Source: Octopus vulgaris
Lineage: Eukaryota
NCBI GenBank assembly: GCA_951406725.2
Contig: OX597815.1
Coordinates: 58,156,001 to 58,220,000 of the forward strand
Direction: 5' to 3'
Length of the DNA stretch: 64,000 bases
In this document: positions 7,858 through 62,400 of the stretch, one piece after another
Layout of the letters: every line of letters starts with the position of its first letter
Numbering within the stretch: the first letter of the stretch is position 1
Translations under genes and position numbers: made by a program
The notes under the pieces: model-generated
Seen by the model: only the letters and a program-made list of their open reading frames with translations
Databases searched by the model: none
Told to the model about the DNA's origin: nothing

Positions 7858-9040
7858 CAAATTGAGATAGGGGTTGTTAATGCAACCCACCATGGGATAC
7901 CATATATCCAATATACTGCTTGTGAGGTACCCAACAAAGTTAATACATAAATGTTAAGAATTGCGATGCAATTAATTCATTTATTGTATTATATGGGCAA
8001 AAGTAAAATGTTTTACCACAAATTCATAATACAAAATAAGAAAATGGAGAAATACATCAAAATCAAATATCAATTATCAGATAATACTCAATCACATACT
8101 TTATTAAACCACTACATAAGAAACCATAAGGTTAAACATAATAATGCAGGGTAAAACTGTGTACATGAAGGAGTGTACATAAAATAGTAATGTTATACAA
8201 TAAGGAGAATACGTATAATAGAACATAAATATAAGTACACATAAATATAATATCTTACAGCTGTTTCGGCCATGTAGATAAGCATGTCTCATTCAACTCA
8301 TATTAGCCATTTATGTTATTGACCTACCATAAATGGCTAATATGAGTTGAATGAGACATGCTTATCTACATGGCCAAAACAGCTGTAAGATATAGTCTAT
8401 ATTTATATTTATGTGTACTTATATTTATGTTCTACTAGCAGTATCGCCCGGCGTTGCTCGGGTTTGTAAGGGAAATAACTATATAAGCATTTTTAGAGAG
8501 TTACTTCCCTTATAGATGCCAATTCGGGCTTTCTTAGCCATTTCTGTTTTGGTGTCTTCAAGCCATGAAGTCGTTGTTCCAAAAGAACGCTGGTCTCCTT
8601 GACAACGCTTTACGACGTTGATTTCCTTACACTCCCTTCCCCACAGCTTCACGAGGGAGGGAAGAAGGGGGAGAAGCAAACAGGTGCAGGTGTGACCATG
8701 GACGCCAACTCCGCCGCCATCGACACATGAAAAATTATGCATTAAAATGGAATAAAAAATGATGTTAAATTATTTTTAAAATCGTAGACTCATCGTAGAC
8801 GCGCGCTAATACTCAGACGGGCTCACACAACTACAGTTTTATATATATAGATTATACGTATTCTCCTTATTGTATAACATTACTATTTTATGTACACTCC
8901 TTCATGTACACCGTTTTACCCTGCATTATTATGTTTAACCTTATGGTTTCTTATGTAGTGGTTTAATAAAGTATGTGATAGAGTATTATCTGGTAATTGA
9001 TATTTGATTTTGATGTATTTCTCCATTTTCTTATTTTGTA
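7858..9040. mobile_element. Inverted pseudo-LTR pair of a PLE related to 51025-56127, interrupted by a Helitron
   Basis: 7865-7960 is homologous to 51033-51130 (AGGGGTTG..CAACCCACCATGGGATA..ATATATCCAATATACTG); ~8030-8315 is the reverse complement of ~8328-8434 plus 8852-9040; contains the hammerhead 3' half GCCGAAACAGCTGTA on the minus strand near 8256-8270. Confidence 0.8.
8435..8851 (-). mobile_element. Non-autonomous Helitron
   Basis: Minus strand begins TCTATATATATAAAA and ends with hairpin CCCGAGCAACGCCGGG followed by CTAG; sits between A and T with no TSD; empty site visible in the opposite inverted arm. Confidence 0.88.
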
Positions 9041-9565
9041 TATGTATATGTATATACATATATATGTATATGTATATGATTATATATATATGTATATAAA
9101 TATATGTATATACATATATGTATGTTGTTATATTTCGGAATGGTCATTTTGCCAGTTTAGCCAATAAATATATATACACATATATATAATAATATATATA
9201 TACATATATATACATATATGTATGTATATATGTATATACATACATATATGTATATACATATATATGTATATATATATGTATATATGTGTATGTATATATA
9301 TATATATATATATATATATATATATGTATATATATGTGTATGTGTATGTGTGTGTATATATATATATATATATGTATATATATGTGTATGTGTATGTGTG
9401 TATATATATATATATATATGTATGTATATATATGTATATGTATATACATATGTATATATATCTATATATAAATGTATATATACATATATATATATATATA
9501 TATATGTATATATAAATGTATATAAACATATATACATATATATATGTATATATACATATATACAT

Positions 9566-59850: not shown

Positions 59851-60366
59851 TATATATGTATATATTTATATATATGTATATATATATATATGTATATATA
59901 TATATATATATATATATATATATATATATATATATATGTATATATATATATATGTATATATATATATATATGTATATATATATATATATATATATATATA
60001 TGTATATGTATATATATGTATATGTATATATGTATATGTATATATATGTATATGTATATATATATGTATATATATATATGTATATATATATATATGTATA
60101 TATATATATATGTATATATATATGTGTATGTATATATATATATGTATATATATATATATATATGTATATATATGTATAAATATATATGTATATATATATA
60201 TGTATATATGTATATGTATATATATATATGTATATATATATATATATATCGTATATATATATATATATATATATATATGTATATATATATGTATATATAT
60301 ATGTATATATATATATACGTATATATATGTATATATATGTATATATATATATATATATATATATAT

Positions 60367-62400
60367 ATCAACAATCAAGGAACGGCTATAATAGGCCATT
60401 CACCCACTAGAAATAACAGCCAAAAGCTTTAACCGCAAAATAACATTAATTCCGTAAACCAGGAGAAAATTGAAAAACATTTACCCTGTAATTTCTTAGA
60501 CGATGCACCGTTTCATCTACCGTTTAATGGTAAACTAACCTGATTAAATTAAATCAAGCCAATCCACCATAGGCCCTTAGACTCATCAGTAAGAAATAGC
60601 CAAGTCGGAACAGATATTTTTCACGAGGCATTCCTCTTGCTACCTCGGCAATATCTGACCTAAAATTTTCAAATCGTCGCACTCGCGCCAAATTTATCGG
60701 CAGCAAATAAATATAAGCCACTGATTCCATTACGGAACTAACCAGAAAATTCATAATTAATCAATATAGGGTGGCAAAAAAATTTTGTAGAATTCTTTTG
60801 CCACCAACGGCCTAGTGGGAAAAAATTAAATAGTCATAAACCATTTTTAAGTTCAACATCAACAATCAAGGAACGGCCATAATAGGCCATTCACCCACTA
60901 GAAATAACAGCCTATATTGATTAATTATGAATTTTCTGGTTAGTTCCGTAATGGAATCAGTGGCTTATATTTATTTGCTGCCGATAAATTTGGCGCGAGT
61001 TCGACGATTTGAAAATTTTAGGTCAGATATTGCCGAGGTAGCAAGAGGAATGCCTCGTGAAAAATATCTGTTCCGACTTGGCTATTTCTTACTGATGAGT
61101 CTAAGGGCCTATGGTGGATTGGCTTGATTTAATTTAATCAGGTTAGTTTACCATTAAACGGTAGATGAAACGGTGCATCGTCTAAGAAATTACAGGGTAA
61201 ATGTTTTTCAATTTTCTCCTGGTTTACGGAATTAATGTTATTTTGCGGTTAAAGCTTTTGGCTGTTATTTCTAGTGGGTGAATGGCCTATTATGGCCGTT
61301 CCTTGATTGTTGATGTTGAACTTAAAAATGGTTTATGACTATTTAATTTTTTCCCACTAGGCCGTTGGTGGCAAAAGAATTCTACAAAATTTTTTTGCCA
61401 CCCTATATTGATTAATTATGAATTTTCTGGTTAGTTCCGTAATGGAATCAGTGGCTTATATTTATTTGCTGCCGATAAATTTGGCGCGAGTGCGACGATT
61501 TGAAAATTTTAGGTCAGATATTGCCGAGGTAGCAAGAGGAATGCCTCGTGAAAAATATCTGTTCCGACTTGGCTATTTCTTACTGATGAGTCTAAGGGCC
61601 TATGGTGGATTGGCTTGATTTAATTTAATCAGGTTAGTTTACCATTAAACGGTAGATGAAACGGTGCATCGTCTAAGAAATTACAGGGTAAATGTTTTTC
61701 AATTTTCTCCTGGTTTACGGAATTAATGTTATTTTGCGGTTAAAGCTTTTGGCTGTTATTTCTAGTGGGTGAATGGCCTATTATGGCCGTTCCTTGATTG
61801 TTGATGTTGAACTTAAAAATGGTTTATGACTATTTAATTTTTTCCCACTAGGCCGTTGGTGGCAAAAGAATTCTACAAAATTTTTTTGCCACCCTATATT
61901 GATTAATTATGAATTTTCTGGTTAGTTCCGTAATGGAATCAGTGGCTTATATTTATTTGCTGCCGATAAATTTGGCGCGAGTTCGACGATTTGAAAATTT
62001 TAGGTCAGATATTGCCGAGGTAGCAAGAGGAATGCCTCGTGAAAAATATCTGTTCCGACTTGGCTATTTCTTACTGATGAGTCTAAGGGCCTATGGTGGA
62101 TTGGCTTGATTTAATTTAATCAGGTTAGTTTACCATTAAACGGTAGATGAAACGGTGCATCGTCTAAGAAATTACAGGGTAAATGTTTTTCAATTTTCTC
62201 CTGGTTTACGGAATTAATGTTATTTTGCGGTTAAAGCTTTTGGCTGTTATTTCTAGTGGGTGAATGGCCTATTATGGCCGTTCCTTGATTGTTGATGTTG
62301 AACTTAAAAATGGTTTATGACTATTTAATTTTTTCCCACTAGGCCGTTGGTGGCAAAAGAATTCTACAAAATTTTTTTGCCACCCTATATTGATTAATTA
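60367..62400. mobile_element. 491-bp tandem repeat, one hammerhead per unit (retrozyme-like): ~1.1 units minus (60367-60910), then ~3.0 units plus (60911-62400)
   Basis: Identical ORFs at 60927, 61418 and 61909 (491-bp period); near-identical units; TA-flanked. Confidence 0.92.
61084..61190 (+). ncRNA. Type I hammerhead ribozyme (copies 61575-61681 +, 62066-62172 +, 60491-60597 -)
   Basis: ATTTCTTA-CTGATGA-GTCTA...TAGAT-GAAA-CGGTGCATCG-TC-TAAGAAAT: 8-bp stem I, canonical core, palindromic stem III, GUC cleavage after 61182. Confidence 0.9.

Follow-up and report, generated by a model that had tools for sequence, protein, structure and literature searches.

Nine inverted Penelope-like insertions in an Octopus vulgaris locus, with a probable origin in priming from both ends of the cut target

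In a 64,000-nt stretch of Octopus vulgaris DNA (assembly GCA_951406725.2, contig OX597815.1, positions 58,156,001 to 58,220,000 of the forward strand; the whole stretch is called the window below, and further positions are in its own numbering), nine insertions with inverted arms, named E1 to E9 in window order, are insertions of Penelope-like elements (PLEs): one is a coding copy of the Hydra clade, and the rest are 5'-truncated or non-autonomous, some of them retrozyme-like. Their form is the known PLE architecture, found here in new families and with longer tails. We think it probable that this form is produced by double-ended target-primed reverse transcription from two preset sites in the element RNA, with one site of each kind used per insertion. 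All nine had been listed in an earlier reading of this DNA (the original prediction), and each was recovered within a few bases of its coordinates by self-BLAST with microsatellites masked, followed by base-by-base comparison of the arms. The order is the same throughout: flank, antisense arm, centre, sense arm, flank, with the element 3' ends facing outward into (TA)n and TA tracts bordering each insertion. In 9/9, one arm is longer by a tail of 64-177 nt and the other is short, the tail lying on the left in E1, E6, E7 and E8 and on the right in E2, E3, E4, E5 and E9. The arms measure 62-2313 bp at 94.8-100% identity, in agreement with the range of about 60 bp to 2.3 kb that had been proposed. 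As a relaxed inverted search of the window (E up to 0.5, arms within 7 kb) returned no further PLE-like outward-facing pair, symmetric or asymmetric, E1 to E9 are the complete set for the window.

The positions of the outer ends argue that they are set by the element itself. In family A, comprising E3 (27171-27385), E5 (34973-40626) and E8 (57415-58062), the short ends lie within about 6 nt of one another and the long ends are identical. The short ends of E1 (7860-9041) and E7 (51025-56131) lie within 3-5 nt, and those of E2 (13256-14141), E4 (27802-28055) and E6 (44557-44866) are found 29, 31 and 30 nt upstream of a common motif. Compared with random draws from TA/AT sites, this clustering has P=0.006-0.025 for family A, P=0.053 for E1/E7 and P=0.014 for E2/E4/E6. 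Longer TA runs were left unused: family A has one of 6 nt just upstream, the E7 tail has one of 8 nt, and E5 has runs of 9-11 nt. Since the short ends are fixed per family while longer runs go unused, the site appears to be preset by the element and not chosen by TA annealing. Likewise, in the tandem copies of E2 and E9 (60367-62401), template sequence is found beyond the long end, so this end must be internal too. The original prediction had the second end picked by annealing to an internal TA-like site and the first arm running to the RNA 3' terminus; both statements are probably wrong. Its expectation about TA content at the short-arm endpoints, followed here within the window, was borne out as a slight TA excess, with the position conserved per family being the stronger signal. 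Finally, one long and one short end in 9/9 has P=0.002 against an independent 50:50 choice at each end, which suggests that the two are coupled.

The overlap between the short ends and the TA flanks is where annealing might be expected to leave its trace. Under a strict rule, it amounts to 3, 0, 2, 3, 2, 8, 0, 3 and 2 nt in E1 to E9, and the example singled out beforehand, the right arm of E6 at 44556, does end at an internal TA site with an 8-nt overlap. Random breakpoints in the same templates give 0.9-1.3 nt, so that the strict sum of 20-23 stands against 9.4 expected. We also assigned the overlaps manually, once leniently and once conservatively. The lenient sum of 29 has P=0.0003; these calls allow one substitution or slip that is unmodelled by the null, and we therefore relied on the conservative sum of 20 (with E8 = 0), for which P=0.021 over whole templates and P=0.069 within the local 15 nt. 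Taking one element per family group gave P=0.025-0.056. Leaving out E6 removed the significance (strict P=0.18-0.32). Seven truncated junctions of long and short interspersed nuclear elements (LINEs and SINEs) with TA tracts overlap by 0-2 nt, and the short ends exceed them at P=0.011-0.022. Nonetheless, the overlap is not peculiar to short ends: long or terminal ends with a known continuation (E2, E9 and a PLE ending at 34738) overlap by 5, 0 and 7 nt, and the difference between short and long ends has P=0.57. Thus, of the TA microhomology proposed for the short arm, a modest bias over chance survives, but it is mostly 2-3 nt long, is zero in 2/9 under the strict rule, and is shared with the other end. 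We consider the TA overlap a small real bias that is best read as register tuning or endonuclease preference.

A model with priming at the RNA 3' terminus for one end, and annealing to any internal TA-like site for the other, is unlikely. The excess over chance and over the seven control junctions, the 8 nt of E6 and the jitter of the family A ends by a few nucleotides speak for it, while the dependence on E6, the P=0.07 against local context, the fixed sites with longer TA runs passed over and the internal long ends of equal overlap speak against it. Moreover, in PAc, the Anolis Poseidon element, no homology is found between the start sites and the cleaved DNA (PMC11167929; this and the other papers cited are represented by the accessible part of their text). 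An AT-preferring endonuclease would leave the same weak bias, and for this reason the overlap cannot separate priming from cutting. A second possibility is endonuclease resolution, where a longer DNA intermediate is cut internally by the element's own AT-preferring endonuclease and a tail is left on one side (PMC8557442). It predicts fixed, AT-rich short ends, and at most of the short ends here AT precedes TA or TT. PAc has a preference for an ATT motif, and the tail of the D. virilis element is reported to be necessary for endonuclease recognition (cited in PMC11167929). However, tail boundaries have been mapped directly to reverse transcriptase (RT) start sites (PMC11167929), and resolution alone leaves unexplained that the arms of E3, E5 and E7 each hold sequence lacking in the other, as described below. 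We regard it as improbable as a full account.

A constraint on how the two arms arose comes from these three insertions, in which the arms are not nested. The short-ended arm carries upstream sequence that is lacking in the tail arm, about 23 nt in E3 (where it is the left arm and the tail arm the right one), at least 750 nt in E5 and 4.45 kb in E7, and in all three the tail is present only in the opposite arm. In the case of E5, the 2.3-kb arms consist of degenerate microsatellite DNA and enclose a spacer at 37306-38217, of which the part 37306-38060 continues the short-ended left arm, the strand skew following that arm. In the case of E7, the tail-bearing inverted arm (51025-51438, minus strand, 414 bp) is followed by the main copy (51439-56131, plus strand), whose short end lies at 56126-56131. 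Because each arm of E3, E5 and E7 has sequence that is missing in the other, neither can have been copied from its partner, and a longer template must have been read for both. Along with the polarity of the arms, this supports the earlier proposal that two separate complementary DNAs (cDNAs), made from both ends of a cut (TA)n site, were joined, and on this point the proposal is probably right.

Non-nested arms in 3/9 exclude simple fold-back and read artefacts. Fold-back, with one strand folding and copying itself into a palindrome (antisense-template self-priming, PMC3846280), would account for the perfect palindromic centres of E4 and E6 and the nearly perfect one of E1, as well as the position of the spacer on the tail-arm side in E2, E8 and E9, and junction palindromes are frequent in Adineta PLEs. 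Still, it cannot yield E3, E5 and E7, and it requires an additional rule by which copying halts 64-177 nt short of the end, at a fixed site, so that we hold it to be doubtful overall, although it may apply to a subset. It is very improbable that the structures are artefacts of read fold-back or of assembly, or that two unrelated insertions happened to meet in a single TA tract. The window is indeed highly repetitive, a 100-N gap is present and the arms of E6 are 100% identical. Elsewhere, though, the arms show substitutions and unequal microsatellite lengths, three separate loci have the same pair of ends, no TA tract is found at any centre, a 417-bp insert sits in one E1 arm only, and private variants are common to both arms. 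The nesting of that insert in one arm marks E1 as an aged genomic structure. The private variants number four in E3, and one site splits both E5 arms from both E8 arms; they point to one source for the two arms, with conversion between the arms as an alternative. The central junctions differ in every copy, and hence the inversion is made anew at each insertion. Microhomology at the centre could be read on both sides at three junctions only, in E2, E8 and E9, where it is 0, 2 and 2 nt.

Two familiar classes of explanation were rejected. L1-type twin priming does not fit, as the arms duplicate the same region, there is no poly(A) and the sites are fixed. DNA transposons with terminal inverted repeats (TIRs), or the miniature elements derived from them (MITEs), are likewise not compatible with ends that differ by a tail in 9/9, nor with an arm length that varies over 62-2313 bp within family A.

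Double-ended priming from two preset RNA sites can be envisioned as follows. The GIY-YIG endonuclease would cut both strands within (TA)n, as has been seen in vitro for another PLE. Each 3'-OH would then prime synthesis on the element RNA, at one or the other of two preset internal sites lying on either side of the tail, so that one cDNA has the tail and the other lacks it; the fixed sites are seen in the copies, and a protein dimer might be what couples both reactions to one RNA. Pairing of 2-3 bases of TA, or an AT-rich preference, may set the register at either site, as the weak statistical signal described above would suggest. Lastly, the two truncated cDNAs would be joined head-to-head with 0-2 nt of overlap and filled in by repair. 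Several points weigh against this scheme. The perfect palindromic centres of E4 and E6 and the 12-nt spacer of E1 would rarely be expected from two independent truncations, so that they require either an RNA 5' end common to both cDNAs or a step of fold-back. Six of the nine (E1, E2, E4, E6, E8, E9) are equally compatible with fold-back. E4 and E6 have neither an open reading frame (ORF) nor a hammerhead core. In vitro, the start sites of PAc did not differ between the two strands (PMC11167929), which gives the one-of-each coupling proposed here no backing. The sample itself is nine insertions from about four family groups in one window.

A broader form of the double-ended scheme can be put forth tentatively, and we rate it somewhat below even chances: as a general rule of PLEs, unstated in the papers accessible to us, a protein dimer may hold one RNA at two preset sites flanking a structured tail and prime both ends of the (TA)n break, each end always from a different site. 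Such a rule would apply to several families, to tails as long as about 175 nt and to non-coding retrozyme-like passengers. If true, a single act of the dimer would explain the inverted pseudo-long terminal repeat (pLTR), the one-sided tail and, where both cDNAs end at a common RNA 5' terminus, the perfect centres. The tails are about 169 nt in E1, about 100 in E2, about 65 in E3, 106 in E4, 64 in E5, 85 in E6, 172-177 in E7, 69 in E8 and 102-105 in E9. Compared with shuffled sequences, they fold more stably in E2 (z -4.5) and E9 (z -4.0), marginally so in E1 and E7 (z -2.1), and ordinarily in E4, E6 and family A; a structured tail is thus not general. The E1 and E7 tails share a long hairpin (7895-8000 and 51068-51172) with 33 predicted pairs, in which two compensatory and two one-sided changes separate these two sequences, and we consider it a candidate protein-binding element. 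Queries with the N-terminal 170 residues from 60 of the 120 listed homologs found no trace of the coding N-terminus in the tails.

It may be that LINEs also prime from both ends at self-complementary (TA)n targets. At 28089-28418, two 3' ends of a LINE with an apurinic/apyrimidinic (AP) endonuclease are fused 5' to 5' without intervening TA, each reaching its terminus in (TA)n, which makes this a symmetric analogue of the PLE structures. Identity between the arms is 94.8%, whereas the right arm and a copy at 59.7 kb agree at 97.4%, so the arms probably come from different templates. A possible second case is found at 40831-41862, where a 5'-truncated LINE copy has a 35-bp inverted 3' end at its 5' side, with two tails that differ in repeat unit.

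The identity of the elements is clearest for E7, the only one of the nine that is coding. Its main copy is a 5'-truncated PLE with RT sequence from 51450 (frame change near 52250), an asparagine-rich linker and a GIY-YIG endonuclease (together 52453-53733), and a 3' region of 2.1 kb. Both the RT and the endonuclease are covered by tblastn matches to homologs, and the YIG motif is present. It carries a CxCx5C linker, CxxC..E and CxH motifs and, by inspection, a single Cys within the GIY-YIG core. By these motifs and its homologs, and not by an RT tree, E7 is assigned to the Hydra clade; a size below 3 kb is stated for that clade as a tendency (PMC8557442), which leaves room for a classification on motifs. 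Among its 120 listed homologs, RW[KR] occurs in 76, DK[TS] in 105 and DKG in 5, the N-terminal region of E7 itself being truncated; among the same 120 relatives, the RT (51354) has an Argonauta hians match at 50% identity, which makes an octopod host likely. Asparagine makes up 18% of the ORF at 52453-53733, a similar stretch occurs in homolog P0002, and the linker is reminiscent of N-rich inserts known from Adineta PLEs. At E 0.001, the two E7 ORFs had no match to a Pfam family, and at gathering score Rfam matched nothing anywhere in the window, hammerheads included; given the clear motifs and homologs, these blanks were not weighed against the PLE identity.

The remaining eight are noncoding. 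E1 is homologous to E7 (z=34) at about 80% identity and forms an inverted pLTR pair, with the tail arm at 7860-8315, its spacer at 8316-8327 and the short arm running right to 9041. The E7 tail hairpin is conserved in E1. The 417-bp insert in its right arm (8435-8851, minus strand) has a TC start, a hairpin and a CTAG end, and lies between A and T with no duplication; on these end features, we take it to be Helitron-like. This element is non-autonomous, and the end of a second copy adjoins a TA tract at 21634. A pattern search found candidate hammerhead cores in 6/9 (E2, E3, E5, E7, E8, E9), 25-196 nt upstream of the short end: that of E7 lies at 55832-55935, E5 has cores at 35036 (minus) and 40499 (plus), and E8 has one in each of its arms (tail arm 57415-57844 on the left, short arm 57845-58062 on the right). 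E1 retains only the 3' half of the hammerhead, the same search gave no core in E4 or E6, and the pattern matches once outside the nine, at 13014. Over the whole set, arm identity is 98.6% over 281 nt in E1, 94.8-96.1% over 77 in E2, 96.8% over 62 in E3, 98.6% over 69 in E4, 99.8% over 2313 in E5, 100% over 112 in E6, 98.3% over 237 in E7, 99.5% over 218 in E8 and 99.6-99.8% over 546 in E9.

E2 and E9 consist of non-coding tandem units and are, judging from their sequence, probably retrozyme-like passengers mobilised by PLEs. E2 has an inverted short arm (13257-13333), a 503-bp unit (13335-13837) and a partial second unit to 14141, with hammerhead-like cores of less regular form at 13336 and 13839, in 2/2 units. 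E9 has a 546-bp short-ended inverted arm followed by three 491-bp units, a core in 3/3, and its long end is internal to the unit. A variable site reads T, G and T across the three units of E9, and the inverted arm carries the unit-2 state, which places the short end in unit 2 and not in the last unit; this could reflect a template that is multimeric or circular, or else one mutation followed by conversion. E4 is a near-perfect palindrome centred at 27875, and E6 a perfect 112-bp palindrome with a 1-nt centre at 44754. Among the 36 pairs tested, E2-E6 gave z=3.6 and E4-E6 z=5.9, and E2-E4 was not significant; the assignment of E4 and E6, by geometry and weak homology to E2, is less secure. A lone 136-bp piece between TA tracts at 45283-45418 weakly resembles the E4/E6 tail and ends at the matching long end (z 3.8-5.2). 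Upstream of the pLTR in E5, about 3 kb of degenerate microsatellite DNA (35300-40230) is perhaps captured host sequence, and a G-rich piece lies at its centre (38060-38217).

Outside the nine, the window is dense in (TA)n (48 tracts covering 9.8 kb by our own tract rule) and rich in retrotransposons, with LINE ORFs for RT and AP endonuclease and two PLE ORFs. The PLE ending at 34738, used above as a control, is of Neptune/Nematis type (29750-34738, plus strand), with a direct pLTR at 98% identity and an open 888-aa ORF bearing DKG, Cx4CxxC and YIG motifs; from these features it is possibly recently active. Its 3' end falls within the repeat as represented by the pLTR copy at 30294, and has the TA overlap of 7 nt. 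The segment 16450-16641, which lacks an inverted partner and stops in (TA)n, looks by eye like the 3' end of this PLE (34600-34738), but the two were not linked by BLAST at E 0.05. An array of 67-bp units with higher-order repeats occupies 16814-18536 in the 3' region of an RTE-like LINE, with related short arrays at 9737-9894 and 56781-56903. The 100-N assembly gap lies within 25918-26135, and the 118 bp after it match 26403-26520 at 95%, so the local order there may be unreliable; none of E1 to E9 touches it.

The origin of inverted pLTRs and tails is still called undefined (PMC8557442, in the text accessible to us), and the in vitro work, in its accessible part, stops before that step (PMC11167929). 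The insertions described here bear on it, in that tails can extend far beyond 30-40 nt and either outer end can be internal to the transcript. This affects the curation of PLE boundaries, and PLE pairs could be mistaken for foldback or TIR elements. A genome rich in such insertions is also a cheap testing ground for the pairing of ends, the nesting of arms and the end positions per family. By title or the start of the abstract, we found no published two-cDNA or twin-priming model of inverted pLTRs, in a search outside which most of the subscription literature lay, including PLE reviews of 2005 and 2006.

In L1 twin priming, both cut ends prime cDNA and the two cDNAs are joined, giving a non-overlapping inversion by terminal poly(A) priming and variable internal annealing. 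Priming from both target ends and the joining of the cDNAs are what E1 to E9 would have in common with it, but their arms duplicate the same 3' region and their start sites are fixed. The closer parallel lies in the PLEs themselves, of which the inverted pLTR with a tail is, as had been anticipated, a described hallmark: it is found with a one-sided tail in the endonuclease-containing (EN+) PLEs Penelope, Adineta Pen2a and Naiad (PMC3846280, PMC8557442, PMC8969392). Those elements share with ours the head-to-head inverted 5'-truncated copy, the tail at one end, junction palindromes, microsatellite targets and partial tandems; their pLTR hammerhead has a counterpart in the candidate cores of six of ours. 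Their tails are described as 30-40 nt, compared to 64-177 nt here, and target duplications are unreadable in our set, since all ends lie in (TA)n. In PMC8557442, the inverted and 5'-truncated copy is drawn with a tail of 30-40 bp that is often confined to one end; the authors attribute this to resolution by the endonuclease and regard the cycle as undefined. It also describes (TA)n targeting by the Hydra clade and, in File S1, lists Hydra-1_Obim from Octopus bimaculoides and an inverted 5' copy for Penelope-13_HM. Like that clade, E7 has an RT, a CxCx5C linker, a C-terminal GIY-YIG with CxxC and CxH, no CCHH, a candidate hammerhead and insertion into (TA)n; unlike its generally <3 kb members, E7 reaches at least 4.7 kb in its main copy and has an N-rich linker as well as the 2.1-kb 3' region. 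The hammerhead flanks differ from those listed for Hydra-1_Obim, so E7 would represent another family. PAc provides the biochemical counterpart: in vitro, both strands are cut and extended, cleavage is AT-rich, a dimer is predicted, and two internal RT start sites bound the tail (PMC11167929). The accessible part of that paper gives no model of inverted pLTR formation or of the joining of two cDNAs, and the weak 2-3 nt TA overlap is a feature of E1 to E9. As to the passengers, E2 and E9 resemble the animal non-LTR retrozymes (bioRxiv 10.64898/2026.07.22.740005) in their non-coding tandem units, each with a candidate type I hammerhead core. They differ, as far as that preprint's accessible text goes, in having an inverted arm and a tail added, and in units of about 500 bp. 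This inverted arm with its tail is direct anatomical evidence of PLE-type integration.

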